Assembly: GCA_036351155.1 (NCBI GenBank)
Contig: JAZBOO010000374.1
Span: 1 to 55,881, forward strand
DNA: 55,881 bases
Direction: 5' to 3'
Source of the DNA: Candidatus Krumholzibacteriia bacterium
GTDB taxonomy: Bacteria > Krumholzibacteriota > Krumholzibacteriia > LZORAL124-64-63
A program made the position numbers and the translations under genes. The notes below the pieces were generated by a model. It was not told where the DNA came from. It was given only the letters and a program-made list of their open reading frames with translations, and searched no databases. Of this stretch, positions 27,799 to 50,405 are shown piece after piece. Position 1 is the stretch's first letter. Each line of letters begins with the position of its first letter.

Positions 27799-28320
27799 TT
27801 GGGCAAGCGCAGAAAAGGCCGGGAAATCGTGTTGCAGGCATGCTACGCCGCCGCGATCAGCGGCGCCAAGCTGGATGACACGCTGGAAGATCAGTTCGCC
27901 CGAAGGACCTCCGCCCCGGAAACGGTCACCTTCGCCCGTCGCCTCATGGCCCTGATCCGCGACCACCGGCAGGACCTCGACGTCAAGGTCAAATCCATCA
28001 TCAGCAAGAACTGGAACCCCGACCGCCTGGGCGCGTTGGAGAAGGTCATCCTGACCATGGGGGTGGCCGAACTGGTGTACAGCAAGGATGTGCCGGTGCG
28101 GGTGGTGATCAACGAATGCCTGGAATTGACGCGGCGCTACTGCGATGAAGACGCGGTGCCCTTTGTCAACGGCGTGCTGGACACCGCCGCCAAGAAGGTT
28201 TACCCCGACGGCATTCCCACCCTGGACGGCCACGTTTTCGAGGAAGAAATCCCGGACGACGGGCCCGAGGAAACAGACGAGCTGGATGCCGATTTCGGCC
28301 CGGACAAGGATCTGCATTGA
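27799..28320 (+). CDS. nusB: transcription antitermination factor NusB
   Basis: RRKGREIVLQACYA...LDRLGALEKVILTMGVAELVY..DVPVRVVINECLELTRRY..FVNGVLD. TTG start 7 nt after AGGAGA. Confidence 0.88.
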   Translation: MGKRRKGREIVLQACYAAAISGAKLDDTLEDQFARRTSAPETVTFARRLMALIRDHRQDLDVKVKSIISKNWNPDRLGALEKVILTMGVAELVYSKDVPVRVVINECLELTRRYCDEDAVPFVNGVLDTAAKKVYPDGIPTLDGHVFEEEIPDDGPEETDELDADFGPDKDLH

Positions 28321-29141
28321 GAACTTCGACCCCCGAACACTGGCAACGCTTCTGGGAGCAGGCCGACACCCTGGATCTGGACGATGTCTACGGGACCGAT
28401 GGCCGCATGGTGCGGGAAATCTGCGCGGCCCTGGACCCGGCCGGGACCGGGGACCTGACCGGGCGCCGCATCCTGGAGGTGGGGGCCGGCACCGGCCGTG
28501 ACGCGGTCACGCTGGCCGCCATGGGAGCCGAGGTCCTGACCCTGGACTACGTGCAGGGATCCCTGGGGCTGACCCTGAAGGCCGCCGGCCAGGCCCAGGT
28601 GAAGGTGGCTGCCATCTGCGGCGACGGCATGGGCTCTCCCTTCGCCGACAATTCGTTCGATGCCGTGTTCCACCAGGGGCTGCTTGAACACTTCCGTGAC
28701 CCTTTGCCCATGATTCGCGACAACCAGCGCATCCTCAAGCCGGGCGGGTGTGCGGTCATCGACGTGCCCCAGACTTTCCACTACTACACCTTGGGCAAGC
28801 AGTTGCTGATCGCCCTCGACAAGTGGTTCGCCGGCTGGGAAACCCAGTTCACCATAGCCCAGCTGGAAAAACTGGTCCGGCAGGAGGGCCTGGAGGTGGA
28901 CCGCAGCTACGGAGACTGGATGGTGCCCGGCCTGTGGTATCGCGCCCTGCGCAAGATCCTGCTGACCCGCCTGGGTGTGAAGCTGCCCATGTTTCCCGAG
29001 CCCGTGCCTTTCCTCGCCCGTCTGGGAGAATCCTGGCGCCGGGCCTTCGGGCGCACCCGGCTGTCTCTGTACACCACGCCGACCATCGGGGTGATCGCGC
29101 GCAAGCCGCTCAAGGGCGGTCAGCCGGAGGCGGGAAGCTGA
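28317..29141 (+). CDS. class I SAM-dependent methyltransferase
   Basis: ILEVGAGTGRDAVTLA (motif I), FDAVFHQGLLEHF, LKPGGCAVIDVP. The TTG start overlaps the nusB stop (TTGA). An internal ATG (MVREI) is an alternative start. Confidence 0.8.
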   Translation: MRTSTPEHWQRFWEQADTLDLDDVYGTDGRMVREICAALDPAGTGDLTGRRILEVGAGTGRDAVTLAAMGAEVLTLDYVQGSLGLTLKAAGQAQVKVAAICGDGMGSPFADNSFDAVFHQGLLEHFRDPLPMIRDNQRILKPGGCAVIDVPQTFHYYTLGKQLLIALDKWFAGWETQFTIAQLEKLVRQEGLEVDRSYGDWMVPGLWYRALRKILLTRLGVKLPMFPEPVPFLARLGESWRRAFGRTRLSLYTTPTIGVIARKPLKGGQPEAGS

Positions 29142-30271
29142 GAATCCTCGCGGTCAACTGGCGGGACATCCGGGATCCCCTCGGGGGCGGGGCCGAGTTG
29201 CACCTGCACAGCATCCTCAAGGAGGCCGTGGCCCGCGGCTGGGAGGTGGACCTGGTCTGCTCCCGGTACAAGGGCGCCCCGCAGCGCGACACCATCGACG
29301 GCGTGAACATCTTCCGGCATGGTCACTGGGCCGTGGCCAACTTCGTGTTGCCCGGCCTGGTCAAGAGGCTGCTGTCGGCCCAGCCTTATGACCTGATCGT
29401 CGAGGACATCAACAAGATCCCCTTCTACACTCCGCTTTACGCCGGCGATACTCCGGTGCTGGCCGTGGTGCCGCACCTGTTCGGCGCCACCGTGTACCGG
29501 GAGGCCAATCCCCTGGTGGCCACCTACGTGTACCTGGCGGAGAAGCTCATCCGCTGGGTTTACCGGGATGTGGATTTCGAGGTGATCAGCCCCTCGACTC
29601 GCGACGATCTGATGCGGCGCGGTCTGAAGGGGGATCGCGTGACCACCATCTATTGCGGGATGGATCACGCACGCTTCACCCTGGCCGATCCTCCTCCTCG
29701 CGATACCACGCCCCTGGTGGTGGCCTGGAGCCGCCTGCGCAAGTACAAGAGCAACGACGTGGCTCTGAGGGCCTTCGCGGAGATCCGGGTCCAGATGCCC
29801 GAGGCCCGCATGATGGTCCTGGGGCGCGGCCCGGACGAGAAGCGACTGCGCCGTCTGACCACACGGCTGGGACTGGACGATGCGGTGGAATTCAAGGGCT
29901 TCATGCCCTGGCAGGAACTGGTGGAAACGCTGCATCGGGCGCACGTATTCCTGAATCCCAGTCCCAAGGAGGGGTGGGGGTTGACGGTGATCGAGGCCAA
30001 CCAGTGCGGACTGCCCGTGGTGGCCAGCGATCGCCCCGGCCTGAAGGATTCCGTGCGGCACGGGGAAACCGGAGCTCTGGTGCCCTATGGCGATCATGCC
30101 GCGTTTGCCCGGGAAGCCCTGTTGTTGCTCAACGATCCGGATCTGTGGCGGCAGCGCAGCGAGGCGGCCCGCCGCTGGGCCGCGACCTTCAGCTGGTCGC
30201 GCTGTGCCGAGGAATCCCTGGACCTGATGACCCGGGTGGCCGGGCGGGACCGACCGGAGCTGCGCCCATGA
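29138..30271 (+). CDS. GT-B glycosyltransferase (GT4-like)
   Basis: RILAVNWRDIRDPLGGGAELHLHSILKEAVARGWEV (GT4 N-domain) and C-domain PSPKEGWGLTVIEANQCGLPVVASD. No ATG/GTG/TTG lies upstream of the domain in frame. The nearest candidate is CTG 29138, overlapping the MTase stop (CTGA). Confidence 0.75.
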   Translation: MRILAVNWRDIRDPLGGGAELHLHSILKEAVARGWEVDLVCSRYKGAPQRDTIDGVNIFRHGHWAVANFVLPGLVKRLLSAQPYDLIVEDINKIPFYTPLYAGDTPVLAVVPHLFGATVYREANPLVATYVYLAEKLIRWVYRDVDFEVISPSTRDDLMRRGLKGDRVTTIYCGMDHARFTLADPPPRDTTPLVVAWSRLRKYKSNDVALRAFAEIRVQMPEARMMVLGRGPDEKRLRRLTTRLGLDDAVEFKGFMPWQELVETLHRAHVFLNPSPKEGWGLTVIEANQCGLPVVASDRPGLKDSVRHGETGALVPYGDHAAFAREALLLLNDPDLWRQRSEAARRWAATFSWSRCAEESLDLMTRVAGRDRPELRP

Positions 30272-31272
30272 ACCGCACCGGCACCAGCCCTCGTGATGTA
30301 GGCGTCTTCCTGGCCAAGCTGGCCGTGTCGGCGGTTCTGATCACCGTCGTGGTCCGGCGGTTGTCCCTGGACGAGATCCGCCTGGCCATGTCCGCACCCC
30401 ACTGGGGCTGGCTGGTCGCCGCCCTCGGTGTCTATGCCCTGTCGGCGGTGGGCGGCGCCACGCAATGGGCCTGGATTCTCCGCGCTGCGGGGATCCAGGC
30501 ACCGGGGCGGGAAATCCGCCGCCTGTACTTCATCGGCCTGTTCTTCAACAACTTCCTGCCCGCCAATATCGGGGGAGACGCCTACAAGATCGTGGACCTG
30601 GGCCGCCGGGAAAAGCGCGGGCTGGGCGTGTTTGCCGCGACGGTTCTGGACCGACTGATGGGGCTGGGGGCGTTGACCTTCCTGGCCATCCTGTTTCTGG
30701 CCGCCGCCTCGGTGGCGGGGATCGAGCTTCCCGCCATTTCCCTGTTGCTGGTGCCGGTCATGTTTCTGCTGGCTGTCCTGGCCAGCTTGCTGATCTCCCG
30801 CCGCCTCGGTCTGGTGGTGGGCGGAGCTCTGCGGCGCCTTCACCTGACCGGTCTGGCCGACCGGATGGAGCACCTGTCCGCGGAATTTGTCCGTTTTCGC
30901 CAGCAGGTCCCCTGGCTGGGGCGCATTTTTCTTTTCAGCGTGCTGGTGCAGGGCTTACGGCTGTTGACCCACCTGGTGGTGGCCCGGGGCCTGGGTTTGC
31001 CCCTGGATTTCAGCCAGATGGTCCAGCTGATGGTCCTGATTCCCATGCTGGCGGTCAGCCTGACCCTGCCCGTGGCCATCAACGGCATCGGATTGCGTGA
31101 AGAGATCTCGGCCAAGCTGTTGACCTGGGCGGGGTTGACCGAAACCCAGGCGGTGGCCATGGAGCTGGTGGCCTTCCTGGTGATGGTGGTTTTCAGCTTG
31201 CAGGGAGGTCTTCTGCTGTGGCTGGGACGGTGGGGACGAAATCCCCGCAGCTCATCCGGATCTCCCGAATGA
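30268..31272 (+). CDS. UPF0104 / LPG-synthase-TM-like 'flippase-like' polytopic membrane protein
   Basis: About 8 hydrophobic spans. FFNNFLPANIGGDAYKI motif typical of this family. The ATG overlaps the GT4 stop (ATGA). Confidence 0.7.
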   Translation: MNRTGTSPRDVGVFLAKLAVSAVLITVVVRRLSLDEIRLAMSAPHWGWLVAALGVYALSAVGGATQWAWILRAAGIQAPGREIRRLYFIGLFFNNFLPANIGGDAYKIVDLGRREKRGLGVFAATVLDRLMGLGALTFLAILFLAAASVAGIELPAISLLLVPVMFLLAVLASLLISRRLGLVVGGALRRLHLTGLADRMEHLSAEFVRFRQQVPWLGRIFLFSVLVQGLRLLTHLVVARGLGLPLDFSQMVQLMVLIPMLAVSLTLPVAINGIGLREEISAKLLTWAGLTETQAVAMELVAFLVMVVFSLQGGLLLWLGRWGRNPRSSSGSPE

Positions 31273-31345
31273 GGTTTCGGCCGGAACCGATTCAGAGCAC
31301 AGTTGTTACCTGCCCGATGGTGTGTTATTTTTTCAATCGGATTGA

Positions 31346-31392
31346 CCGGGTTTCGTCGTGAACGAGGGCGTTCATGAAACCCGGCCGTTTTG
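31346..31392 (+). terminator. hairpin plus short T-tract (possible attenuator/terminator) just before the DUF2723 gene
   Basis: CCGGGTTTC (31346-54) / GAAACCCGG (31376-84) with inner GAACG/CGTTC, then CCGTTTTGG. It sits inside an otherwise gap-free array, so its function is uncertain. Confidence 0.3.
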
Positions 31393-34353
31393 GTGTCTTG
31401 CCCATCCCGCAAAGGTGTTGACTTGAACAAGCAATGGTATCTCCGGCCCCAGGTGCTGGTGGCGGCCGGGATCTTTGTCCTGACGCTGGCCGTTTACACG
31501 GCCACCCTGGGCCCCACCACCGATTTCTGGGATTGTGGTGAATTCATCACCACCAGCCACATCGTGGGCGTTCCCCACCAGCCGGGGACACCGCTCTACG
31601 TCCTGGTGGGTCGGGTGTTCGACATCTTCCTGGGCGACGCGGACATCACCCAGCCGGCCATGCGCACGGCCTGGGCCATCAACTTCATGAGCGCCTTCTT
31701 CAGTGCCCTGGCCGTCATGATGCTGTACCTGGTGATCTGGGAGCTTGCCCGCCGCATGCACCCTGATTCCGGGGTTTTCGCCCACCTTGGCGGGGCCGTG
31801 GGGGCCATCTTCCTGGCCTTCTCCGACACCTTCTGGAACAACGCCATCGAGGCCGAGGTCTACGGGCTGGCGGCCTTCATGATCATCCTGCTGACCTGGC
31901 TGGTCATCCGCTGGTATGAGCACATGGCCCACCCCGGCAGCAACAATCTGCTGCTGCTGATGATCTACCTGCTGGGTCTGGGCGTGGGCTTCCACCTGGG
32001 ATCGGTCCTGGTTTACCCCGGCATCTTCATCCTGGTGTTCCTGATGAGCTATCAGAAACGGGCCACCTTGCCCTGGGTGGATCTGCTGATCATGAGTGGC
32101 GGGCTGGGCATTTTCCTGCTCAGCACCATGCACCGGGAAAACGGTCTGATCCTGGGTCTGCTGGCGGTTTACCTGCTGGTGGTGGTTTTCCGGGCCGTGA
32201 CCGGGCATCGCTTCGCTCTCTGGGGCAGCGCTCTGTTCTTCCTGGGGCTCACCGTGCACATCATGATGCTCATCCGGGCCGGTGCCAATCCCGAACCATT
32301 CATCAACCAGACCGCCCCCGACAATTTCGAAACCCTGATGTCCGTGATTCGCCGCGAGCAGTATCCCACCCTGAGCAGCCTGGATCGCAAGGCGCCCCTG
32401 GCCTTCCAGTTCGGGTACTACTACAAGTTCCTGCTCAAGCAGTTCTACTTCCTGGGTGACGGGACCAGCGCCCTGTCCGTGGCCTCGACCCTGATCGGCC
32501 CCCTGCTGCTGGCGGTGGTGGGGCTGGTGCAGGGACTGCGCCGCATCTTCCCTTTGATGCTGGTGCCGGTGGTGAACTACATCTTCAACGGTGAGATCCT
32601 GACCCTGGTGCTGAACTTCGCCAACCCCGAGGTGCGCGACCGGGATTACTTCTACTTCGCGGCTTTTCTTTTCGTGGCCATTTTCATTGGCCTGGGCGTC
32701 ACCGCCCTGCTGCGTTTCTACGTGGGCAAGGAGGGGTTGTCGGCCGAGGCCATGAAGAAGGCCGGCCAGGCCTGGCGCTCCGCCACGCAGATCAAGCCCA
32801 CCGGGCTGGTCCTGGTCTCGGCGGGCGTCCTGCTGGTCATTTCCCTGGCGCCCATCCTGCCCAGTCACCAGAAATTCTTCGAGCATGACCGCAGCGAGAA
32901 CCGCATCGCCTACGAGTACGCCTGGAATATCCTGGCGGGGCTCGATGACAATGCCATCATCTTCACCAACGGGGACAACGACACGTTCCCCATCTGGTAC
33001 CTGCAGGCGGTGGAACATTTCCGGCGCGATGTGACGGTGGTCAACCTGTCGCTGATCAACCTGCCCTGGTACATCAAGCAGCTGAAGAATGCCGACCATC
33101 CCCTCGATTTCGGAATGACCGAGGAGGAAATCGACGCCATCGATGCCCGGGCCCGGAGATATCAGGAGATGTTCCGGGATCTCCGCACCGGACGCATTGG
33201 CTTGCGGTTGCCCCGGTCGGACACGCAGATCGAGGCCATGAGCCAGGCCGAACGGGAAAATTTCCTGCTGTCCTGCATCTGGGAGCTGAAGAATGGCGAT
33301 CACCGCAAGGTGCTGCGGTCGGCACCGGTCAGCCCGCAGCCTTCGCGCTACGTGCAGTCGGTGCTGTATGAGTCCCTGCTGGTCAAGGACTACATCCTGC
33401 CGCGCATCATCGCCACCAATCAGGACAACCTGCAGCGCCCGGTCTTCTTTGCGGTGACCATCCCGCAGGAAAACATGGACCGCTGGTTCTCGCGACTGCA
33501 GATGGAGGGCATGGCCTATCGCTTGCTCGACACGCCGTCGGAAGACGGTATTCCCGTCACCGACGCGCGCAAGGTCCTGGAAAACATGCTGGGCGTGTAC
33601 CGGATGGATGCGCTGATGGACGGTAATACCGCCGAACGTCAGTCGGCCTATGCCGAGATGGCCGGGCTGGCCGGCGACCAGGGGCAGCTTATCCTGGGAC
33701 AGGAGGGGCGCCAGCTGAGCTCCGGCGATCTCTCCAGGCTGTCGGGGATGTTCGGGCAGAAACGCCGCGACGTGTTCCGGAACCAGAATGCCACTCATCT
33801 GCTGGGGAACTATCCGGCCGCGTTCAATCGCGCCGGGTACGAATCCTACCAGCTGGCCAACGAGGTGGCTCTGACCGACACGGCCGCTTACCAGCGCTAC
33901 CTGGACGATGCCATGGTGGCCTTCGAAACCTGCCTGCGGGTGGAACCCTTCAACCCCCAGGCCATGGAATTTTACCCCCTGTTGCTGGTGCAGGCCTACC
34001 GCGACAACGAGGCCAAGGCCTTCCTGAGCTCCCTGGCCGGCAACGTGCCCTGGGAAACCGAGCAGCGCATCGTGGTCAGCACCATCCAGGGTTTCGTGCG
34101 CGGCGGCGTGACCAGCCTGGCGCTGGAGTGGGTGGGCGAGCAGGTCTCGGCCCGGCCCGAGCGTCAGTTCTACCGGCAGTTGCTGTTCAGCATTTATCAG
34201 TCCCTGGGGAGGGTGGCCGAAGCCCGCATGGTCATGGATGAGTGGACGGCCTACCACGGTTCCGAGGATCCGGAAATGCGCCGCGGCTACGAAGAGATGT
34301 TGCAGCAGGCGCCGCCGGCTGCACAACCGCCCAACAACAACCCGGGGGAATGA
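31390..34353 (+). CDS. DUF2723-family GT-C-fold glycosyltransferase (TMEM260/PMT-like) with C-terminal TPR region
   Basis: VYTATLGPTTDFWDCGEFITTSHIVGVPHQPGTPLYVLVGRVF is the DUF2723 signature N-terminus. More than 10 TM spans, a large periplasmic region, and TPR-like helices at the C-terminus. Start uncertain (TTG 31390 / GTG 31393 / TTG 31423). Confidence 0.8.
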   Translation: MVSCPSRKGVDLNKQWYLRPQVLVAAGIFVLTLAVYTATLGPTTDFWDCGEFITTSHIVGVPHQPGTPLYVLVGRVFDIFLGDADITQPAMRTAWAINFMSAFFSALAVMMLYLVIWELARRMHPDSGVFAHLGGAVGAIFLAFSDTFWNNAIEAEVYGLAAFMIILLTWLVIRWYEHMAHPGSNNLLLLMIYLLGLGVGFHLGSVLVYPGIFILVFLMSYQKRATLPWVDLLIMSGGLGIFLLSTMHRENGLILGLLAVYLLVVVFRAVTGHRFALWGSALFFLGLTVHIMMLIRAGANPEPFINQTAPDNFETLMSVIRREQYPTLSSLDRKAPLAFQFGYYYKFLLKQFYFLGDGTSALSVASTLIGPLLLAVVGLVQGLRRIFPLMLVPVVNYIFNGEILTLVLNFANPEVRDRDYFYFAAFLFVAIFIGLGVTALLRFYVGKEGLSAEAMKKAGQAWRSATQIKPTGLVLVSAGVLLVISLAPILPSHQKFFEHDRSENRIAYEYAWNILAGLDDNAIIFTNGDNDTFPIWYLQAVEHFRRDVTVVNLSLINLPWYIKQLKNADHPLDFGMTEEEIDAIDARARRYQEMFRDLRTGRIGLRLPRSDTQIEAMSQAERENFLLSCIWELKNGDHRKVLRSAPVSPQPSRYVQSVLYESLLVKDYILPRIIATNQDNLQRPVFFAVTIPQENMDRWFSRLQMEGMAYRLLDTPSEDGIPVTDARKVLENMLGVYRMDALMDGNTAERQSAYAEMAGLAGDQGQLILGQEGRQLSSGDLSRLSGMFGQKRRDVFRNQNATHLLGNYPAAFNRAGYESYQLANEVALTDTAAYQRYLDDAMVAFETCLRVEPFNPQAMEFYPLLLVQAYRDNEAKAFLSSLAGNVPWETEQRIVVSTIQGFVRGGVTSLALEWVGEQVSARPERQFYRQLLFSIYQSLGRVAEARMVMDEWTAYHGSEDPEMRRGYEEMLQQAPPAAQPPNNNPGE

Positions 34354-39912: not shown

Positions 39913-40663
39913 CTTGCCGCAGGACCAGTCCGGATTGCCCGTTCTGGGACCCATCCGCACCGCGGTGGTGGTGGTGCCGACCTACAACGAGGCCGAAAAT
40001 GTGGGACGGCTGATTCCCCTGATCCTGGCCCGTGACCCTCGTCTTTCGGTGCTGGTGGTCGATGACAATTCGCCGGACGGCACCGGTGCCGTGGTGAAGG
40101 GATTGCCGGGTTTCGGGGACCGGGTCCTTCTGCTGGAGCGACCGGGCAAGGCCGGGCTGGGTGCGGCCTATATTGCCGGCTTTCAGTGGATCCTCGAGCA
40201 TACCGAATTCGACGCGGTGTTCGAGATGGATGCGGACTTCAGCCACCAGCCCGAAGCCCTGGACCATTTTCTGGAGGAGATCGACAGCCATGACCTGGTC
40301 CTGGGGAGCCGGTACCTGGAAGGCGTGACGGTGGTCAACTGGCCCCTGAGGCGGTTGATTCTCAGCGTGGGGGCGAACATCTACGCGCGCTTCGTCACCG
40401 GGATGCCCATCAAGGATTCCACCGGTGGGTTCAAGTGCTTCCGCCGGGCAACCCTGGAGCGGTTACCCCTGGACAGCATCAAGAGTGACGGGTACTCCTT
40501 CCAGATCGAGATGAACTACCACTGCTGGCGTCGTGGACTGAGGATCAAGGAGATTCCCATCATGTTCGTCGACCGCGCGGTCGGCGTGTCGAAGATGAGC
40601 AAGAAGATCATCGTCGAAGCCATGTGGATGGTGTGGGCACTGCGCCTGCGCCGCATACCCTGA
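39905..40663 (+). CDS. polyprenol-monophosphomannose synthase (Ppm1/DPM1-like GT2)
   Basis: VVVPTYNEAENV, VVDDNSPDGTG, GLGAAYIAGF, MDADFSHQP, DSTGGFKCFRR, GYSFQIEM closely matches the dolichyl/polyprenyl-P-mannose synthase pattern. Confidence 0.88.
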   Translation: MSSLPQDQSGLPVLGPIRTAVVVVPTYNEAENVGRLIPLILARDPRLSVLVVDDNSPDGTGAVVKGLPGFGDRVLLLERPGKAGLGAAYIAGFQWILEHTEFDAVFEMDADFSHQPEALDHFLEEIDSHDLVLGSRYLEGVTVVNWPLRRLILSVGANIYARFVTGMPIKDSTGGFKCFRRATLERLPLDSIKSDGYSFQIEMNYHCWRRGLRIKEIPIMFVDRAVGVSKMSKKIIVEAMWMVWALRLRRIP

Positions 40664-42830: not shown

Positions 42831-45253
42831 TGAATCTTTTTTCCAAGATCCGATGGGTCCTGGGTACATTGTTGCTCTGCCTGATGACCCTGTCCTCTCT
42901 GGCGTATGGCCAGTCGGTGGACTTCACACCCTATCTCAATGCGCGCAGCGTGGTCTCCCTCTGGGACAGTGGGTCACGCATATTCGCTGGTCTGGATGAG
43001 GGCGGACTGGTGATCTGGGAGCACGATGACATGGATGCTCCCCGCCGCCTCGTCGCCGGCAGCGGTCTTTCCGGAAACCAGATTGCCGACATGGCCTGGT
43101 CCGGCCGCCACCTCTGGGTGGCCACTCGCGAAGGGGGCTTGACCCGGATCGGCAATCCCGACGGTGAGCTGGAGTTCCGGCAGTATTCCTCGAACCTGGG
43201 TGACCTCGCCTTGACCGCGGTGGCGGCCACTTTGCTGGGAGAGAGCGAGCGTGTGTTCTACGCCATGGATGGGGCGGGGATCGGCCGCATTGTCGATGGC
43301 CTGCCCGGGGCGCTCTACAGTGCAGAACAGGATGGCCTGATCGACAACAACGTCAATGCCCTGGCATTCTTCGAGGACCGGCTGTTCGTGGCCACCCCCT
43401 CGGGGATTTCCCGCTTCGTCAACAATGCCTTCACCGATGTCAATGATGGTCTGGGCAATCTGGTCATCAACGACCTGATCGTGGACACCGCGGGTGATCT
43501 GCTGGCTGCCGGCAACGGGGGCGTGTACCGATGGGATGCCGAGGAAGAATTCTGGACCACGATTTCCAGTTTCGGTAGCTGGGCACTTGAGCTGGCCAGT
43601 GGTCCCCTGGGGACGTTTGGTCTGGGGCTGGGGGCCGGCAATACGGGTATTGTACGCCAGTTCACCGGAGGAGAATGGGTGACCCTGACGCGGCCTTATC
43701 CTCGGACCCGCTCTCTCTGCGCCGACCACGACCTGTTGATCGGCGGCCAGTATGTTCCCGATGGTATGACCGGGGCCGTGGGTTTTGGTTTCCTCGGCCG
43801 CTACGACGAAGCCATGGCCATCGAGACCTGGGAGATGGAAGCTTCTCTGGTCCGGAATGCCCACGGCATCACTTTCGGCCTGGACGGGACGCCCTGGATC
43901 GGGTCCCACAACGCGGACGCCGTATCCAATCTGCAACCTGACGGGTGGGCCAGTATCTACGAACTGGCTTCGGCGGAGAACGATTCCTCCGGTTTGATGA
44001 ACTTCAGCTCGAACTTCCTGTGCATGGCCACCGGCACCGATGGCGTCATTTACGGCGCCCAGTATACGGCCGGGGTGATACGCCACGACCCGGTGGCGGG
44101 ACGCAGCCATATCATGATGCCATCCAACTGCGGGCTCACCGATGGAAATGTCGTGAACATGGTGGTGCACCCGGCAGGCCCGGTTTTCTTTCTGTACGAC
44201 TGGGGAAATGATATCACCAAGGTGGATATCCTGGTGAATCCGGACCAGTGGCGCAATCCCGAAAGCTGGGTTTCTCTGCCCCTGGGGGAAGGAGGACTGG
44301 GCACCGGCCCGACCTGCTGGGACGTTCTGTTCGAGCGCAACGATGTGATGTGGTTTGCCATGGAAGGCACAGGGCTGGTGCGCTGGGATCTCAATAGCGA
44401 TTTGCAGGGCCCCGACGATTCCTTGACCTGGCAGAACATGGCCGATGACCGATGGGATGAACCGGTGGCCGAGTTCCCCGGCACGTTCAATGACCCCCTG
44501 GATGCCGTGGCGCTGGCTCCGGGGCCGGACGGCACCATGTGGGTGGGAGGAAACGGGGTGACCCGGATCAGCTATGGTGAGTTTTCCCGGATCGTGGTGG
44601 TGGAGGAGCATTTCAGCCAGAAAAACAGCCCCTTTGGCGAGGGCCTGGTCAACGGTAATGTCGAGGACCTGGCCATCGATGCCAATGGACATCTCTGGGT
44701 GGCCACCCGGGCAGGACTCAACCGCGGGATCACCGAGGAGGGTGTCACCACCTTCCAGGCCTGGTTCGATCTCGGAAACTACCTGTCGGATTCCAGCTAT
44801 GCTTCGTTGTACTCTCCCGATGCCATCACGGTGTTGCCCGGCGGCCTGTACCGCAAGTTGCTGGCCAATCCCGACGGCACCGATCTGTTGTTGAGCTCTG
44901 ATCGGGGTGCCGTGCTGATCGAACCGGGGGCTGGATCAAGCGGAGGCGGCACCAGCGACAACCAGTCACGGGCCTATCTCTATCCCAACCCCTTCAAGCC
45001 CGCCGAAGGGCAAGGCAGCCTGAAGCTGGGCGGATTGGCGGCCGATGCGGTCAACGGAGATCCGGCCGAGGTGCAGATCTACAACATGGAGGGCCAGCTG
45101 GTTTTTGAAAACCTGGCGGTGTCCGCCGATGTCGGGTTCTGGGACGGGCGCAACATTTCCATCGAGCGCAATGACGTGACGACGGGTATGTACGTGGTCC
45201 GGATCACTTTTGCGGGACAGACTGTGGTCAAGACCCTGGCCATTCTGCGTTAA
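42827..45253 (+). CDS. secreted beta-propeller repeat protein (two-component-regulator-propeller-like) with C-terminal T9SS/FlgD-Ig-like sorting domain
   Basis: Signal MMNLFSKIRWVLGTLLLCLMTLSSLAYGQ. Recurrent V..L..D..G.LWVAT..GL.R repeats. C-terminus YLYPNPFKP...VQIYNMEGQLV...GFWDGRN...TGMYVVRITFAGQTVVKTLAILR. The ATG overlaps the upstream stop (ATGA). Confidence 0.75.
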   Translation: MMNLFSKIRWVLGTLLLCLMTLSSLAYGQSVDFTPYLNARSVVSLWDSGSRIFAGLDEGGLVIWEHDDMDAPRRLVAGSGLSGNQIADMAWSGRHLWVATREGGLTRIGNPDGELEFRQYSSNLGDLALTAVAATLLGESERVFYAMDGAGIGRIVDGLPGALYSAEQDGLIDNNVNALAFFEDRLFVATPSGISRFVNNAFTDVNDGLGNLVINDLIVDTAGDLLAAGNGGVYRWDAEEEFWTTISSFGSWALELASGPLGTFGLGLGAGNTGIVRQFTGGEWVTLTRPYPRTRSLCADHDLLIGGQYVPDGMTGAVGFGFLGRYDEAMAIETWEMEASLVRNAHGITFGLDGTPWIGSHNADAVSNLQPDGWASIYELASAENDSSGLMNFSSNFLCMATGTDGVIYGAQYTAGVIRHDPVAGRSHIMMPSNCGLTDGNVVNMVVHPAGPVFFLYDWGNDITKVDILVNPDQWRNPESWVSLPLGEGGLGTGPTCWDVLFERNDVMWFAMEGTGLVRWDLNSDLQGPDDSLTWQNMADDRWDEPVAEFPGTFNDPLDAVALAPGPDGTMWVGGNGVTRISYGEFSRIVVVEEHFSQKNSPFGEGLVNGNVEDLAIDANGHLWVATRAGLNRGITEEGVTTFQAWFDLGNYLSDSSYASLYSPDAITVLPGGLYRKLLANPDGTDLLLSSDRGAVLIEPGAGSSGGGTSDNQSRAYLYPNPFKPAEGQGSLKLGGLAADAVNGDPAEVQIYNMEGQLVFENLAVSADVGFWDGRNISIERNDVTTGMYVVRITFAGQTVVKTLAILR

Positions 45254-45276: not shown

Positions 45277-46761
45277 ATGGCGAAAGACCATAGCGACACC
45301 TTGCACCCTGAAGGGGAGGCCACCCGCCTCCTGGTGGTGGGGGCCGGGGCCGCGGGCCGGGCTCTGGTGGAGCAGCTGCAGCAAAGTGGGCTCCCGGTGA
45401 AGCCGGTGGCTTTTGTCGATGACGACCCTGAACTGATCGACACCGAGATCCTGGGTTTACCGGTCCACGGGGGCACCGCAGAGGTGGTGGCGATCGCCCG
45501 TCAGATGCACGCGCGTGAAGTCTTGCTGGCCATCCCTTCGTCGGGCGGTGGGCTGTTGAGGCGCCTGATCCTCGAGTGCAAGGGTGCGGGGCTGCCGGTG
45601 CGGATCGTGCCGGGGGTGCGCGACATCATCCGGGGCGATGTCACCATTTCACAGATCAGCGAGATCAAGCCCGAGCACCTGCTGGGGCGCGAGACCGTGG
45701 ATTTCAATGTGGACCGGGCCCGAAAACTGGTGGCGGGCCGCACGGTGCTGGTGACCGGGGCGGGCGGCAGCATCGGCGGCGAGCTCTGTCGGCAAATTCT
45801 CCCCCTGGAACCGGCGGAACTTATCCTGCTGGGGCGGGGCGAGAACAGCATCTTCGAGATCGCCGGGGAACTGGCCAACACCAATCGGGGCACCCGGATC
45901 CGGCAGGTCATTGCCGATGTGCGAGATGCCGGTCGCCTCGAGGTGCTGGCCAAACGGCATCGGCCCGGTCTTATCTTGCACGCCGCCGCCCACAAGCATG
46001 TGCCGCTCATGGAGGATAACCCGGAGGAGGCCGTGCTGGTCAACATCGGGGGCACGGCCAACATGATCCGGTTTGCGCGGCGGGTTGAGGCCGAAAGATT
46101 TGTCCTGATCAGCACCGACAAGGCCGTGGCGCCTTCCAGTATCATGGGGGCGACCAAGAAGGTGGCCGAGCTGCTGGTGGCCCGGGCTGCGGCCCGGCAG
46201 GAAAAGACCAGATTCATGTCCGTCCGCTTCGGCAACGTTCTGGGCAGCCGGGGCTCGGTGGTGCCCTTTTTCATGAAGCGGATCGAGGCGGGTTTGCCTC
46301 TGCCTGTGACCCACGAGGACATGACCCGATTCTTCATGACCATCAAGGAAGCGGCCCAGCTGGTGGTGGAGGCCATGCTGCTGGGGGACCCCGGGGCCAC
46401 CTACATCCTGGAGATGGGAAACCCCGTGCCGATCATTGAACTGGCGCGCAACCTGCTGGCTCTTTCCGGTTTCGACCCCGCGGGGGGAGACACCGGTCCC
46501 GGTATCACGGTGACCGGTCTGCGTCCCGGAGAAAAGCTGCACGAGGCTCTCCATGAAAGTTACGAAACGCTGGTGGCCAGCGAGCACCCCCTGATCATGA
46601 AAGCTGATGGGACAGGACAGGAAACCGAGCAGGTTCTTGAAGCCCTGGACGAGCTGCTGGACCTGGCTCAGCGGGGACGCGTGGCCCCCTTGCGTGAACT
46701 TCTGGCGGAAGTGCTGAAACAGCCGGGGCTGGCCCTGGTGGCTTCCGGAAAGGAATCCTGA
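45277..46761 (+). CDS. nucleotide-sugar 4,6-dehydratase, CapD/PglF/WbpM family (soluble form)
   Basis: VLVTGAGGSIGGELCRQI, LHAAAHKHVPLME, ISTDKAVAPSSIMGATKK, VRFGNVLGSRGSV. Confidence 0.88.
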   Translation: MAKDHSDTLHPEGEATRLLVVGAGAAGRALVEQLQQSGLPVKPVAFVDDDPELIDTEILGLPVHGGTAEVVAIARQMHAREVLLAIPSSGGGLLRRLILECKGAGLPVRIVPGVRDIIRGDVTISQISEIKPEHLLGRETVDFNVDRARKLVAGRTVLVTGAGGSIGGELCRQILPLEPAELILLGRGENSIFEIAGELANTNRGTRIRQVIADVRDAGRLEVLAKRHRPGLILHAAAHKHVPLMEDNPEEAVLVNIGGTANMIRFARRVEAERFVLISTDKAVAPSSIMGATKKVAELLVARAAARQEKTRFMSVRFGNVLGSRGSVVPFFMKRIEAGLPLPVTHEDMTRFFMTIKEAAQLVVEAMLLGDPGATYILEMGNPVPIIELARNLLALSGFDPAGGDTGPGITVTGLRPGEKLHEALHESYETLVASEHPLIMKADGTGQETEQVLEALDELLDLAQRGRVAPLRELLAEVLKQPGLALVASGKES

Positions 46762-46763
46762 CC

Positions 46764-47945
46764 ATGAGCGAGGGACGTCGGTACATCGAGCGCCAGGAGG
46801 TCCTGCCCTTTTTTCGGCCGGACCTGGGCGATGCGGAAATCGATGCGGTGAGCCAGGTTCTCCGTTCCGGCTGGTTGACCTACGGGGCGCAGGTGCGGGA
46901 GTTCGGCCAGCGCTGTGCCGACTATCTGAAGGTGGAGCACGCCGTGCCGGTGGCCAGTGCGTCGGCCGGTCTTTTCCTGGCGCTCAAGGCGCTGGGGGTG
47001 GGCGAAGGAGACGAGGTCATCCTCCCTCCGATCACCTTCATCTCCACCCTGTCGGCCGTGGTCCACTGCGGGGCCACTCCGGTCCTGGCGGACATCGAAC
47101 CCCGGTATCTGGGGCTGGATCCGGAAGCGTTCGCGCGCGCCATCACTCCGCGGACGCGCTGTGTGATTCCGGTGCACATGGCGGGTCATCCCTGCCGTCT
47201 GCCAGAAATCCTGGCCACGGCGCGGCAGAACGGGATCAAGGTGGTCGAGGATGCCGCGCACAGCTTCGGCTCTCGACTGGACGGCACCCTGCTGGGGGGC
47301 TTCGGCGATGCCACGGTGTTTTCATTTTACGCCACCAAGAATTTCACCACCGGTGATGGGGGACTCGTGACCACGCAGGACCCCGACCTGGCGGAGAAGG
47401 TGCGCATGCTGAGCTTTCACGGCATGGACGGCAATGCCTGGCAACGCTATTCCGGGCGGGGCAGCTGGTACTATGAGGTGGTGGAATACGGATTCAAGTA
47501 CCACCTGGGCGATCCGGCCGCAGCCCTGGGGCTGGTCCAGCTGGGCCGAGCCGACGAATTCCTGGCCCGACGAACGGAAATTGCCGCGCGGTATTCTGAG
47601 GCGCTGGCTGATCTGCCTGGAGTGCTCTTGCCCGAGGAGGCCGACTGGGCCACCCATGCCTGGCACCTGTATGTTCTGCGGGTGGATCCCGAACGGATCC
47701 GGGAGGGCCGAGATGGCCTGATCGAGGATTTGCAGGTCAACCGGCTGGGCAGCTCGGTGCACTTCATCCCTCTGTACAAGCATCCGGTCTGGACCCGGGG
47801 TGGGCTGCCCGCCGAGGGGATGGCCGAGGCGGAGAAATATTTTCAAAGCTGTGTCAGCTTGCCCCTGTTCCCGGCCATGACCGAGGGCGAGATCGAGGAC
47901 GTGATCACGGTGGTTCGCCGCAGCTTGTCCGATCGCCAGTCATGA
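46764..47945 (+). CDS. DegT/DnrJ/EryC1/StrS-family PLP aminotransferase (PglE/WecE-like)
   Basis: LPFFRPDLGDAEIDAV, GDEVILPPITFIST, VVEDAAHSFGS, SFYATKNFTTGDGG (PLP lysine). Confidence 0.9.
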   Translation: MSEGRRYIERQEVLPFFRPDLGDAEIDAVSQVLRSGWLTYGAQVREFGQRCADYLKVEHAVPVASASAGLFLALKALGVGEGDEVILPPITFISTLSAVVHCGATPVLADIEPRYLGLDPEAFARAITPRTRCVIPVHMAGHPCRLPEILATARQNGIKVVEDAAHSFGSRLDGTLLGGFGDATVFSFYATKNFTTGDGGLVTTQDPDLAEKVRMLSFHGMDGNAWQRYSGRGSWYYEVVEYGFKYHLGDPAAALGLVQLGRADEFLARRTEIAARYSEALADLPGVLLPEEADWATHAWHLYVLRVDPERIREGRDGLIEDLQVNRLGSSVHFIPLYKHPVWTRGGLPAEGMAEAEKYFQSCVSLPLFPAMTEGEIEDVITVVRRSLSDRQS

Positions 47946-49042
47946 CCTCCTCCCCTCCTGAGACTGTGACCATGAAGATCACACACCAGGAGGATGCCCC
48001 TGCCGGCTGGGATGCCCTGGTGGACGCCGACCCCGGCGCCGATTTCTTTCACACAGCGGACTGGACCCGCCTGGCCGCACGTTGTTATCCCGGCCTGAAA
48101 CCCTTCTGGATCGAGGCCCGACAGGGTGACCGCACCGTGGGGGGAATGGCCGGGTTTGATCGAGTGGGCCGGGTTCCCTTGCTGGGGCCTTTGGTGCGCC
48201 TGGAGAGCAATCTGGAGGGTGTGTCCGGGGGGCCTCTGGTGGTGGGAGAACTGGATGAAACCGCCCGTGACCATATTTTCCGGGCCCTGGTGGAGGAAAT
48301 GCTGCGCCTGGCCACGGGATCCTTTTCCCGCTGCGCCATATCCCTGAACACATTCCAGGAAAACCGATTTGGCCACCTCCTGGCTGACCAGCCTCTGTGG
48401 CAGCGCTTTTCTGTGCCGGGGTCGGTGGTCGATCTTTCCCAAGGGCGCGAGCACGTCGAAGCCCACCTGATGAGCATGAACAAGCGCAACGAACGCAACC
48501 GCGCCCTCAAGCGCGGGGTCGAGGCTTGCACCACCAGTGACCCTGCCCTCCTGCGTGCTTATTACCCGCTGTATCTCGCCGCGAGCCAGGTTTGGGGCCA
48601 GTCCCCGGTCCCTCTGGAGTTCCTGGAGGCTCTGCTGGGCCTCGGTCCCGAGAAGTGCTTTTTTTCGTGTGTGCGGTTCGAGGATCAGGTGATCGGCGGC
48701 CATCTCAACCTGGTCCACGGCGATCGGGTGTTCGCCTGGAACGGGGTGACCGACCCGGCCCACGCGCGCAAGCATTTTCCCGCCACAGTGGTCATGTGGT
48801 GGGACATCGTGGAAAGTTGCGCTCGGGGCGCGCGCTCCCTTGATCTGGGTGCCAGTGGCGGAGTGGTCAGTCTAGGTGGCTTCAAGCGCAATTTCGGAGC
48901 TGACCTGGAGGAGCGCGGGTTCTATGTTCGTGAAAGCGCGGGAATGAAGCTCCTCAAGCAAGGACAAACTCTGTGGTCCCGGGTGCGACGGTCCGGTGCC
49001 AAGGGCGGCAGGCGCTGGCATGATCGGAAGGGGCGGACATGA
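47942..49042 (+). CDS. FemAB / BioF2-like GNAT-fold (Acetyltransf_6-like) acyl- or aminoacyl-transferase
   Basis: N-terminus FFHTADW, mid MSMNKRNERNRALKRGVE, C-terminus GGHLNLVHGDRVFAWNGVTD...LDLGASGGVVSLGGFKRNFGA. This is the FemAB-like pattern as I recall it. The ATG overlaps the upstream stop. Confidence 0.6.
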   Translation: MTSSPPETVTMKITHQEDAPAGWDALVDADPGADFFHTADWTRLAARCYPGLKPFWIEARQGDRTVGGMAGFDRVGRVPLLGPLVRLESNLEGVSGGPLVVGELDETARDHIFRALVEEMLRLATGSFSRCAISLNTFQENRFGHLLADQPLWQRFSVPGSVVDLSQGREHVEAHLMSMNKRNERNRALKRGVEACTTSDPALLRAYYPLYLAASQVWGQSPVPLEFLEALLGLGPEKCFFSCVRFEDQVIGGHLNLVHGDRVFAWNGVTDPAHARKHFPATVVMWWDIVESCARGARSLDLGASGGVVSLGGFKRNFGADLEERGFYVRESAGMKLLKQGQTLWSRVRRSGAKGGRRWHDRKGRT

Positions 49043-50346
49043 GGCTTTTCAAGGCCGGCGCCCGCATTCTGTTCAGCCGCATCGGACAGGTCCTGGCCAA
49101 CGCCGCCGTGGTCATGGTCATTGCCAAGACCCTCGGACCTTCCGGACAGGGGCACTACAGCCTCACCGTGGCCGGCGTGCTGCTGCTGGCTTCCTTGCTG
49201 GGAGGGGGCATGGGTCTATCTGCGGTTCCGCCTTTGCGCCAGGACAAGATCCGCCCCGCTCGGATGTTCCGGGTCCAGATGACCTGGGTGGCCGGGATGG
49301 CCGTGGTCCTGGGAGTTCTGGCCTGGCTGTCGACCACGCCTGCTCCTGCTGCTTTCCTGGCGGACCACCTGGGATGGCGTCCGGGCTGGGGCTTCCTGGC
49401 CGCTCTGGCCGCCCTGGCCGTCCTGGTGTTCGAGGTTTTCAGCTACAACCTCCTGGCCCGGGGGCGACTGGTCATCGGAGCGGCCGTCAACGGCTATCGT
49501 GCCATGGGACATCTGGCCGTGGTGCTGATGGTGTGGGGTGTGGGGTCCCTGACCCTGGGGCTTTCGGTGGCAGCCTTTGCCGTGGCCCAGACCGCCGGCG
49601 GAGCCGCCATGCTGATCCTGGTGCTGCGCGAATTTCGCCGGCCCTTGCGTGAACTCCCCGGGATCTCGGGGGTGGGGGTCTCGGATTCCGATGTTCCCGA
49701 TGATCTCGATCGGCGGTCTCTCCTCGCCTTGATCGGTTACAACCTGCGGCGCGGCTGGATCGGTCAGATTTCTGCCGTGGCCTATTTCCTTCTCTTGCGC
49801 CTGGATCAAGGCCTGCTGGAGCACTTCCGCGGAGCGGCCGAAGTGGGGATTTACTCGGTGGCCGTGTATGTAGGGGAAATGCTCTGGCTGCTGCCCGGGG
49901 CCATCACCCCCTTGCTGGTCCATTCCTCGGCCGATGACGGTGGGAGCCGACGCCGGGACACCACCGCGGTGCGAGCTGTCCAGTTCGGGTTCCTCCTGAC
50001 CCTGGCGGCGGCCTTGCCTCTGTTCTTTCTGGCGGAACCCTTGCTGAAACTCCTGGCCGGGGGCGAGTACGCCGGGTCAGGCCCCGCCTTGCGCGCCCTT
50101 TTGCCGGGCATTGTCTTGTTTGCGCCCGGGGCTGTCCTGGCCGGCGATTTCATCGGCCGGGGCAAGCCTCACTGGAACACCCAGGCCAGTGCGGCCACCG
50201 TGGCGGTCAACTTGCTGGTGGCCTGGCAGTTGATTCCCCTGTACGGCCCCGTGGGAGCGGCCTGGTCCAGCACCATTGCCTATGCGGTGGGGGGGGGAAT
50301 CATGCTGATCCGTTTCCGGTCGGTGCTCCGGAAGGAAAAACGATAG
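49039..50346 (+). CDS. Wzx-type polysaccharide/oligosaccharide flippase (MOP superfamily)
   Basis: 435 aa, about 12 predicted TM spans. N-terminus ARILFSRIGQVLANAAVVMVIAKTLGPSGQGHYSL is typical of Polysacc_synt proteins. The ATG overlaps the upstream stop. Confidence 0.75.
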   Translation: MRLFKAGARILFSRIGQVLANAAVVMVIAKTLGPSGQGHYSLTVAGVLLLASLLGGGMGLSAVPPLRQDKIRPARMFRVQMTWVAGMAVVLGVLAWLSTTPAPAAFLADHLGWRPGWGFLAALAALAVLVFEVFSYNLLARGRLVIGAAVNGYRAMGHLAVVLMVWGVGSLTLGLSVAAFAVAQTAGGAAMLILVLREFRRPLRELPGISGVGVSDSDVPDDLDRRSLLALIGYNLRRGWIGQISAVAYFLLLRLDQGLLEHFRGAAEVGIYSVAVYVGEMLWLLPGAITPLLVHSSADDGGSRRRDTTAVRAVQFGFLLTLAAALPLFFLAEPLLKLLAGGEYAGSGPALRALLPGIVLFAPGAVLAGDFIGRGKPHWNTQASAATVAVNLLVAWQLIPLYGPVGAAWSSTIAYAVGGGIMLIRFRSVLRKEKR

Positions 50347-50380
50347 CGTAACCCAAAGCCAGACAGATGGTTTGACCGTT

Positions 50381-50405
50381 CCGGGCCCTCGGCCCGGTTT
50401 TTTTT
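50381..50405 (+). terminator. intrinsic terminator ending the glycan array
   Basis: CCGGGCC-ctc-GGCCCGG followed by eight T. Confidence 0.8.

Follow-up and report, generated by a model that had tools for sequence, protein, structure and literature searches.

A conserved envelope-glycan gene array between nusB and mraZ in a Krumholzibacteriota-like bacterium and its possible relation to type IX secretion

The contig JAZBOO010000374.1 of a Candidatus Krumholzibacteriia bacterium (assembly GCA_036351155.1) was analysed from position 1 to 55,881, and this whole stretch of 55,881 nucleotides is called the window below. Between nusB and mraZ, the latter belonging to the division and cell wall (dcw) cluster, it carries an array of 15 open reading frames (ORFs) on the + strand between positions 28317 and 50346 (Table 1). 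The best explanation of this locus is a core envelope-glycan operon of a Krumholzibacteriota-like diderm of the Fibrobacteres-Chlorobi-Bacteroidetes (FCB) superphylum. An original prediction, made from the sequence letters, had described 15 co-directional ORFs with tight junctions that extend from a TTG codon overlapping the nusB stop (28317) to an intrinsic terminator at 50381-50405; these coordinates and starts were confirmed, and the statement that no gap exceeds ca. 120 nt holds, the largest being the 117 nt (31273-31389) in front of ORF4.

Start codons were fixed by start-codon analysis and by comparison with relatives. The TTG of ORF1 overlaps the nusB stop (TTGA). In relatives this codon is GTG or ATG, and the N-terminus VRxSTPxHWQxF is shared. 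ORF2 starts with a CTG at 29138 that overlaps ORF1 (CTGA). Further overlaps of 4 nt are present at 30268, 42827, 47942 and 49039, of 14 nt at 35403, and of 8 nt at 36367 and 39905, while the remaining junctions are gaps of 0-23 nt. The closing terminator consists of a hairpin at 50381-50397 followed by a run of eight T residues and is the sole strong terminator-like site of the array, other sites being weak. All identified genes from ca. 13.7 kb to the end of the window are on the + strand, so the co-directionality of the array is not informative; what goes beyond chance is how tightly the genes are coupled, that they have a single terminator, and that their synteny, described below, is conserved. 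The array is probably co-transcribed as one operon. The G+C content is ca. 63% for the window and stays between 0.61 and 0.67 throughout, with no compositional break; on this uniformity and the flanking core genes a horizontally acquired island was rejected.

Upstream of nusB a flavin mononucleotide (FMN) riboswitch is found at 23253-23393 on the + strand, 5' of ribD (Rfam RF00050, 121.7 bits). On the same strand it is followed by the rib genes, a DinB-family gene, nusB and the array of 15 genes, and just one weak terminator-like site (27696-27710) is located between the DinB gene and nusB. Conceivably, a transcript under flavin control could continue into nusB and the array.

Table 1. Genes and features of the nusB-mraZ region and the manC-like gene of the window, with median protein identity in close relatives.
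Feature	Coordinates	Strand	Supporting match or characteristic	Median identity (%)
manC-like gene	5536-6642		NTP_transferase + ManC beta-helix	
nusB, upstream boundary	27799..28320	+	Pfam NusB E 3e-25; stop overlaps ORF1 start	63
ORF1, class I S-adenosylmethionine-dependent methyltransferase	28317..29141	+	Methyltransf_11 E 5.5e-18	76
ORF2, GT4 (GT-B) glycosyltransferase	29138..30271	+	Glycos_transf_1 E 1e-37	74
ORF3, LPG_synthase_TM/UPF0104 'flippase-like' membrane protein	30268..31272	+	PF03706 E 3e-33	
ORF4, TMEM260/DUF2723-family GT-C, large C-terminal periplasmic domain	31390..34353	+	PF11028 E 1.5e-46	
ORF5, short-chain dehydrogenase/reductase, most likely UDP-glucuronate 4-epimerase giving UDP-galacturonate	34355..35416	+	6zl6 and MoeE5 matches	76
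ORF6, ArnC/GtrB-type polyprenyl-phosphate glycosyltransferase, GT2 + C-terminal transmembrane helices	35403..36374	+	ArnC structures	77
ORF7, soluble GT2 glycosyltransferase	36367..37311	+	Glycos_transf_2 E 7e-15	
ORF8, distant YfhO-family GT-C	37312..39912	+	weak YfhO matches; predicted GT-C fold	
ORF9, DPM1/Ppm1-type soluble polyprenyl-phosphate hexose synthase	39905..40663	+	Pyrococcus DPMS match	81 (highest in array)
ORF10, WbbL-like GT2 fused to full-length, catalytically degenerate WbaP-like phosphoglycosyltransferase	40677..42830	+	family profile	
ORF11, PorZ-like: signal peptide, two Reg_prop beta-propellers, type IX secretion C-terminal domain	42827..45253	+	profile + Foldseek	44
ORF12, PglF/PseB-type UDP-HexNAc 4,6-dehydratase without transmembrane domain	45277..46761	+	Polysacc_synt_2 E 2e-102; PseB 184 bits	
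ORF13, DegT/PglE/PseC/ArnB-type sugar aminotransferase	46764..47945	+	DegT_DnrJ_EryC1 E 7e-117	
ORF14, Fem-type (VimA-like) aminoacyl-tRNA-dependent transferase	47942..49042	+	Acetyltransf_6 E 1e-16	
ORF15, MOP-superfamily lipid-linked glycan flippase, Wzx/PST-like, ca. 12 transmembrane segments	49039..50346	+	Polysacc_synt E 5.5e-6	
Intrinsic terminator closing the array, 5' of mraZ	50381..50405	+	7 G-C pairs, 3-nt loop, T8	
mraZ				54

Homologs of ORF8 with 48-91% identity originate from metagenome-assembled genomes (MAGs), the named ones belonging to Candidatus Krumholzibacteriota or Krumholzibacteriia. A scan with one genome per species gave 80 loci, which were searched by tblastn with the 15 proteins and with nusB, mraZ and rsmH. 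Of these loci, 27 have an ORF8 identity of 40% or more, and the array is colinear in every one of them; at least eight of the genes were found in 19 of these, the others being limited by contig ends, and nusB is located upstream in 14. Among loci with 30-40% ORF8 identity 25 of 26 are colinear as well. This set includes Eisenbacteria and deep Krumholzibacteriia, the latter with an almost complete array, and insertions are present in both. Gene tables showed an identical order down to mraZ in a 90%-identical relative and in two divergent relatives. On an Eisenbacteria chromosome the 5' part of the locus reads ArnC - (NTP-transferase, GHMP kinase, GT4, unknown) - GT2 - methyltransferase - GT4, and the 3' part reads YfhO - DPM1 - GT2::pseudo-WbaP - Reg_prop propeller - FemAB - flippase - GT4 - mraZ. 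The invariant core, directly 5' of the dcw cluster, is thus YfhO - DPM1 - GT2::pseudo-WbaP - PorZ-like - Fem - flippase.

Median identities of the array genes range from 44 to 81% and are comparable to those of nusB and mraZ, which together with the colinearity argues for a core locus rather than a variable O-antigen island or a chance adjacency, and indicates that the array is under purifying selection. Scattering of the genes in relatives, which would have spoken against the predicted array, was not found in the close loci. An ordinary variable O-antigen or capsule cluster was rejected because of the deep conservation, the lack of Wzy, Wzy_C and Wzz matches in the array (Pfam), and the inactivated initiating transferase described below. 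That its genes are as conserved as nusB and mraZ and keep a fixed place before the dcw cluster suggests that the array makes a core component of the envelope in these uncultured lineages.

The protein families that had been read from motifs were all recovered by Pfam and NCBIfam searches, with reservations about YfhO, Bac_transf, the tetratricopeptide repeat (TPR) and Polysacc_synt that are given with the proteins concerned. At family level the array encodes two synthases of polyprenyl-phosphate-linked (polyprenyl-P-) sugars, ORF6 and ORF9, and two unrelated glycosyltransferases (GTs) of the GT-C class, ORF4 and ORF8, as had been proposed. For ORF6, three ArnC structures align with the whole protein, C-terminal transmembrane (TM) helices included (E 5e-51), and the GtrB protein sll0501 is matched as well (E 1e-25); in NCBIfam ORF6 scores 179 bits with NF007986 and 120 bits with PgfS. 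ORF9 is similar to the catalytic domain of the Pyrococcus dolichyl-phosphate mannose synthase DPMS (5mlz, E 3.9e-25) and matches the NCBIfam models AglJ and PpgS. The predicted GDP-mannose source elsewhere in the window is indeed a manC-like gene. For ORF5 the best matches in the Protein Data Bank (PDB) are 6zl6 (E 8e-68) and MoeE5 (6kv9, E 2.5e-59), the latter being a UDP-glucuronate (UDP-GlcA) 4-epimerase (PMC7984243). Since ORF5 is closest to such epimerases, the product of the ORF5-ORF6 pair is probably polyprenyl-P-galacturonic acid (polyprenyl-P-GalA).

ORF4 is a clear member of the TMEM260-like family PF11028 (158.9 bits, cut-off 24.2). Alignment with the cryo-EM structure of human TMEM260 (9rql, E 5.8e-15) places D48 of ORF4 at the catalytic residue D52 of this protein O-mannosyltransferase, which depends on dolichyl-phosphate mannose (PMC10214176). 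A C-terminal extracytoplasmic domain is common to both proteins, although TMEM260 has 707 amino acids and ORF4 987, and ORF4, unlike its metazoan homolog, is encoded in an operon of 15 genes that includes a lipid-linked oligosaccharide route. Transfer of mannose from polyprenyl-P-mannose to serine or threonine residues of proteins is a candidate activity, ORF9 being the DPMS homolog as in the metazoan TMEM260/DPM1 and actinobacterial Ppm1/Pmt pairs. The TPR part of the predicted DUF2723 GT-C+TPR architecture is faint (E 0.037 with Pfam, in the C-terminal half); the GT-C part stands. In the Eisenbacteria locus L035 a TPR-rich partial ORF at the start of the locus, directly 5' of the ArnC-like gene, is by its position the likely counterpart of ORF4.

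The YfhO assignment of ORF8 proved correct as to the GT-C fold, but its match to the Pfam YfhO family (PF09586) covers the C-terminal 50 residues and, with 22.1 bits, does not reach the cut-off of 28.5; weak YfhO matches were obtained for 25 of 26 family members. A family profile search gave no sequence relatives in the PDB, so the fold had to be predicted. The AlphaFold2 model (predicted local distance difference test score, pLDDT, 82.6; predicted template modelling score 0.84) has GT-C proteins as its best 14 Foldseek hits: AftD, ArnT, PglB, EmbC, EmbA/B, STT3 and Pmt1-Pmt2. Residue D64, located in the first periplasmic loop, is invariant. ORF8 is best called a member of a distant YfhO-like clade with a predicted GT-C fold.

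In distant FCB phyla the YfhO-like gene is the only gene of the array that was found; nine of the 27 loci have an ArnC-like gene no more than a few kb away. In these nine (L041, L045, L047, L051, L052, L057, L067, L076 and L077) the YfhO-like homolog has 26-38% identity and the ArnC-like GT2 is encoded 2-8 kb upstream. This suggests that ORF6 and ORF8 form an older donor/transferase pair, and that ORF9 then joined later or serves ORF4.

Similar to the three-component systems GtrA/B/C, CsbB-GtcA-YfhO and PgfS/E/M1/M2, the array thus combines cytoplasmic GT2 enzymes that are predicted to charge polyprenyl-P (ORF6, ORF9) with external GT-C enzymes (ORF8, ORF4) that have an acidic residue in the first extracytoplasmic loop. 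The epimerase ORF5 adjoins its synthase as in Pgf, and such systems may be embedded in larger glycan clusters, as here (PMC8035078, PMC11127046). Unlike them, the array has two systems side by side, one of them with a TMEM260-family GT-C that lacks a characterized bacterial member; its YfhO protein belongs to a very distant clade below the Pfam cut-off, and the host is a diderm of the FCB superphylum. A small flippase of the GtrA/GtcA family was not found among the 15 ORFs with Pfam and NCBIfam; a UPF0104/LPG_synthase_TM protein, ORF3, is encoded instead. It has a TIGR00374 flippase-like domain (E 5e-10) and five hydrophobic segments above a threshold of 1.6 in a simple hydropathy scan, and as the only such candidate in the array it might substitute for a GtrA-type flippase of polyprenyl-P-sugars.

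These enzymes would also fit a general protein O-glycosylation machinery of the Bacteroidota/FCB type, which we regard as unlikely to be the main function but as the strongest competitor. ORF9 would make polyprenyl-P-mannose, ORF4 and/or ORF8 (the latter as in streptococcal Pgf) would glycosylate periplasmic or surface proteins, and the GTs and flippase would build an outer glycan that is put on top, with ORF11 as a glycoprotein substrate or a glycan-binding accessory. The conserved catalytic aspartate of the TMEM260 homolog ORF4, the DPM1-like ORF9, the manC-like gene, and the resemblance of ORF6 to PgfS and of ORF5-ORF6-ORF8 to PgfE/PgfS/PgfM all speak for this possibility. A review of Bacteroidota glycosylation describes the oligosaccharyltransferase, flippase and ligase of the core glycan as undiscovered and the pathway as resembling eukaryotic O-mannosylation (PMC12871550), and one ORF15 family member matches the Wzx model of Bacteroidota O-glycosylation. 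The LFG locus for O-glycosylation in Bacteroidota likewise has a Wzx-type flippase with a set of GTs; however, it starts with metG, varies between species and lacks GT-C, DPM1-like and PorZ-like genes, whereas the present array is conserved and has nusB and mraZ as its neighbours. The TPR signal of ORF4 is only faint, the literature search gave no bacterial DUF2723 protein with a known acceptor, and O-glycosylation does not account for two genes that lie amid the others, the conserved PorZ-like gene and that of the Fem-type transferase.

The presumed GalA-forming pair brings in another alternative, a locus related to lipopolysaccharide (LPS), in which polyprenyl-P-GalA would be used by a GT-C to modify lipid A or core according to Rgt/Arn logic, while the other genes build a conserved outer core or single O-unit and the location of ORF11 is incidental. 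The rhizobial LpsL/RgtE/RgtA-D enzymes work in exactly this way. As in those systems, the UDP-GlcA 4-epimerase-like gene is directly 5' of the gene for the ArnC-like synthase, and an acceptor-side GT-C and an ArnB-like aminotransferase are present; ORF6 is closest to ArnC, ArnT is one of the top structural matches to the ORF8 model, and ORF13 scores 343 bits with the ArnB model of NCBIfam (341 bits with PseC). The GT-C proteins are, however, of the YfhO and DUF2723 families and neither belongs to the ArnT/Rgt family (PMT_2, GT83). The array has no ArnA, ArnD or ArnE/F, and ArnE/F, WaaL and Lpx/Kdo genes are likewise missing nearby. Moreover, deep lineages have the PorZ-like gene at the same position, which speaks against an incidental placement. 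We consider this explanation rather improbable.

A methyltransferase (ORF1), a GT4 enzyme (ORF2) and a GT2 enzyme (ORF7) are supplemented by ORF10, in which an intact GT2 half with the usual motifs is fused to a WbaP-like domain. The predicted GT2::WbaP-like fusion was borne out as homology and not as activity. Pfam did not detect Bac_transf in ORF10, even with the isolated C-terminus at E <= 1; the homology to full-length WbaP is visible only with the family profile, which aligns to WbaP residues 6-471 (E 9e-24) and to PglC (E 6e-9). The catalytic Asp-Glu dyad (SLDELPQL motif) is replaced in 21 of 21 aligned family members, for example by GNLLPLWW in the window, SDFVNLPLFW in a deep clade and GLSTFPQL in L048. 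About 35 residues upstream of the dyad are deleted, and the GPRP and PGLTG motifs are kept. With a WbaP-like domain that lacks the dyad, the array is without an active initiating phosphoglycosyltransferase, and the conserved GT2::pseudo-WbaP fusion is an example of such an enzyme turned into a non-catalytic module.

The CTG of ORF2 is preceded by GGAGG 7-9 nt upstream, and CTG is found at the same codon in seven relatives (L001, L004, L012, L016, L017, L020 and L034). Others have ATG, GTG or TTG, with a conserved N-terminus (M/L/V)(R/K)ILAVNWRDI. It appears to be a conserved non-canonical start that gene callers may miss.

The last four genes encode amino-sugar enzymes (ORF12, ORF13), a Fem-type transferase (ORF14) and a flippase (ORF15). 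The sole NCBIfam match of ORF14 is TIGR03019, a family that also matches VimA, which in Porphyromonas gingivalis adds serine or glycine to the amine of a linking sugar (PMC7468200). Through this common family ORF14 is a putative VimA-like enzyme. Its family profile has PDB matches restricted to aminoacyl-tRNA-dependent transferases, including a peptide synthase (9wqy, E 3e-20) and FemX (E 4e-10). ORF15 has 435 amino acids and ten hydrophobic segments in the hydropathy scan. It was predicted to be a Wzx protein; membership of the MOP superfamily is supported, but the Wzx subfamily is not, since Wzx/PST and MurJ models match equally weakly. Polysacc_synt gives 26.5 bits (cut-off 28.2). Within the family, Polysacc_synt matches 8 of 13 members, Polysacc_synt_3 6 of 13 (best 3e-12) and MurJ models 7 of 13 (Pfam) or 11 of 13 (NCBIfam), with scores that stay far below the cut-offs throughout. 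The subfamily of this MOP flippase is ambiguous, and a canonical MurJ is unlikely by length, number of TM segments and scores.

This ambiguity bears on the possibility that the array consists of several independent modules held together by their place next to the dcw cluster, with ORF14-ORF15 as a FemX-like/MurJ-like pair acting on peptidoglycan precursors. Apart from the MurJ matches in the ORF15 family, including one in L083, this would agree with FemX enzymes that act on UDP-N-acetylmuramic acid-pentapeptide or lipid II being among the PDB relatives of ORF14, with the location of ORF14-ORF15 directly 5' of mraZ in all lineages examined, and with the 117-nt gap that splits the array after ORF3. 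MurJ has 14 TM segments. ORF15, in contrast, has ca. 12 in 435 amino acids, and its MurJ scores are ca. 20-40 bits against an equivalog cut-off of 235. Furthermore, ORF13, ORF14 and ORF15 are coupled by ATGA overlaps, a strong terminator separates ORF15 from mraZ, and the whole array is colinear even at ca. 30% protein identity. A collection of independent modules therefore appears quite improbable, more so than the LPS-related locus.

ORF11 was described before as a propeller with a type IX secretion system (T9SS) tail and a possible secreted substrate; the architecture was confirmed, whereas the role of mere substrate does not fit the resemblance to PorZ found by profile and Foldseek searches. 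The C-terminal domain (CTD) scores 30 bits with TIGR04183 (cut-off 23) and matches the NCBIfam PorZ model (E 2e-12). A profile of 15 family members aligns the end of the second propeller and the CTD to PorZ (5m11, E 3.8e-20); it also matches the periplasmic sensors, likewise with two propellers, that belong to hybrid two-component systems (HTCS) of Bacteroides. The AlphaFold2 model (pLDDT 88.3) has PorZ 5m11 as top Foldseek hit over the whole chain (E 4e-24, TM-scores 0.61/0.65), and HTCS sensors reach only 0.33. PorZ was not reached by a single-sequence phmmer search of the PDB with ORF11. On the predicted model ORF11 is a structural counterpart of PorZ, with two propellers and a CTD. Its gene is placed between ORF10 and the Fem and flippase genes in 14 close loci, in divergent members (33-38% identity) and in the Eisenbacteria chromosome. 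PorZ, a protein of the T9SS attachment complex, binds anionic lipopolysaccharide (A-LPS) and passes it on to the sortase PorU (PMC8545088, PMC5121618).

A PorZ look-alike and a VimA-like enzyme in one array make a surface glycan that anchors type IX-secreted proteins the most likely product. Specifically, the array might make a lipid-linked linker glycan with an aminoacylated amino sugar, decorated in the periplasm, that is the anchor for T9SS cargo. We hold this reading tentatively, at somewhat under an even chance, and regard a more general statement as much more secure, namely that this is a conserved envelope-glycan operon in which a route to a lipid-linked oligosaccharide is joined with two GT-C steps in the periplasm. 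In P. gingivalis the linker is a single pentasaccharide built on undecaprenyl diphosphate by four GTs, Wbp/Vim enzymes and the flippase PorS (PMC13086638); VimA-added serine or glycine is carried by the terminal sugar, and cargo C-termini are joined via its free amine (PMC7468200). ORFs 11-15 with the cytoplasmic GTs ORF2, ORF7 and ORF10 would match the parts list of this A-linking saccharide.

From the observed enzyme classes, gene order, tight coupling and deep synteny we infer the following pathway. The 4,6-dehydratase ORF12 and aminotransferase ORF13 would form a UDP-4-amino-4,6-dideoxy-N-acetylhexosamine (UDP-4-amino-4,6-dideoxy-HexNAc), and ORF14 would add an amino acid to its 4-amine, leaving a free alpha-amino group. 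A 4-amine newly made by dehydratase and aminotransferase would explain why a VimE-type deacetylase is not needed. A short oligosaccharide would be assembled on undecaprenyl diphosphate by ORF2, ORF7 and the GT2 domain of ORF10 after initiation by a transferase encoded outside the array, with methylation by ORF1 and with the dead WbaP-like half of ORF10 possibly docking its GT2 to the membrane or lipid carrier. ORF15 would export the lipid-linked unit, presumably as a single, unpolymerized unit because Wzy and Wzz are missing from the array. In parallel, ORF5 and ORF6 would supply polyprenyl-P-GalA and ORF9 a polyprenyl-P-hexose, probably mannose; ORF3 may flip these donors, and the YfhO-like ORF8 and TMEM260-like ORF4 would add the sugars in the periplasm to the glycan or to proteins. 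ORF11, exported by the T9SS, would bind the finished glycan and, by analogy with PorZ and A-LPS in P. gingivalis, present it to the T9SS sortase, which would join cargo C-termini to the free amine, making the operon product the equivalent of the A-linking saccharide. Protein O-glycosylation and cargo anchoring are not mutually exclusive, and the two functions may coexist.

Similar to the A-LPS system of P. gingivalis and Tannerella forsythia (Wbp/Vim, WbaP, GtfC/F, VimF, PorS, with PorZ), the array has a PorZ-like double propeller with CTD, a Fem-type transferase (ORF14) of putative VimA likeness, several cytoplasmic GTs including a GT4 enzyme, no Wzy, in line with a non-polymerized single unit, and a DegT aminotransferase gene that adjoins the MOP flippase gene as in porR-porS. 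The differences are substantial: the genes are scattered in P. gingivalis and form one operon here, WbpS is missing, the WbaP homolog is catalytically dead and fused to a GT2, two lipid-P-sugar/GT-C systems are extra, and the phylum is Krumholzibacteriota-like, not Bacteroidota.

Several observations weigh against an anchor function. The 55.9-kb window contains no T9SS core genes, PorU/PorV/PorQ, WaaL or active initiating transferase. Pfam and NCBIfam searches of the array gave no WbpA (UDP-GlcNAc 6-dehydrogenase), WbpB, WbpD or VimE (CE4 deacetylase), so the amino sugar, a 4-amino-4,6-dideoxy-HexNAc, would differ from the 2,3-diamino uronic acid of P. gingivalis. ORF12 and ORF13 are variably present and missing from the array in several relatives. 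The likeness of ORF11 to PorZ is at fold level with partial sequence similarity (16% identity), and by sequence profile the HTCS glycan sensors outscore PorZ. MurJ models fit ORF15 no worse than Wzx models do, and a TMEM260 homolog such as ORF4 points to O-mannosylation of proteins more than to decoration of a glycolipid. The evidence is computational throughout and was drawn from genomes of uncultured organisms (MAGs), and no literature linking Krumholzibacteriota with T9SS was found.

The original prediction knew of no described system with the same composition. This agrees with our searches on bacterial DUF2723 and on Krumholzibacteriota glycosyltransferase loci, which gave nothing relevant and no publication on the locus; however, embedding of lipid-P-sugar/GT-C systems in glycan clusters is established in other bacteria (PMC8035078, PMC11127046). 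Each module is of a known kind, and the composition is new while the principle is not. New are the deeply conserved combination with its fixed location between nusB and mraZ, the inclusion of a PorZ-like gene, the TMEM260 homolog in a bacterium and the pseudo-WbaP fusion. A more far-reaching proposal takes five elements together: a single phylum-wide pathway outside Bacteroidota for a glycolipid that anchors T9SS proteins, an aminoacylated 4-amino-6-deoxy sugar as sortase acceptor, periplasmic finishing by a TMEM260 homolog and a YfhO-like GT-C fed with polyprenyl-P-GalA and polyprenyl-P-mannose, a dead phosphoglycosyltransferase domain as lipid-carrier docking scaffold, and a PorZ gene embedded in the biosynthetic operon of its own ligand. 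That all five hold jointly is doubtful.

The T9SS anchor glycan of Porphyromonas is made by the products of scattered genes, whose assignment took two decades. A compact operon with PorZ-like and VimA-like proteins, aminotransferase, flippase and GTs would provide a parts list of cargo anchoring for other FCB phyla, and the PorZ-like gene within it would be genomic evidence for co-evolution of PorZ and its glycan ligand. The array also would give a first functional context to bacterial TMEM260/DUF2723 proteins, which have no characterized member, and to YfhO-type GT-C enzymes of diderms, and it offers candidates for the missing O-mannosylation-like step of protein glycosylation in FCB/Bacteroidota.

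Some features outside the array may be mentioned. Between mraZ and rsmH the dcw cluster contains a small STAS-domain ORF (51209-51631, +; STAS_2 E 1.8e-9), and in L083 an ORF at the same position (18397-18810) has a weak STAS_2 match; an anti-sigma-antagonist-like gene is unusual here. The FtsI/PBP3 homologs encoded 3' of rsmH in the relatives L081 (20255-22372) and L083 (20281-22473) have a PASTA domain according to Pfam, which is more typical of penicillin-binding proteins from Gram-positive bacteria; their counterpart in the window is located at 53081-55198. Three ORFs on the + strand, at 11697-12608, 12957-13772 and 21840-23183, have a coding-like GC content at third codon positions and no Pfam match at E <= 1e-4; the last of these encodes 447 amino acids directly 3' of ftsY. 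A tRNA-Gln gene (352-426, +; anticodon TTG) is located 5' of prs, where the window begins. The presence of selA for L-seryl-tRNA(Sec) selenium transferase (13705-15339, +; E 3e-112) implies that the organism uses selenocysteine.

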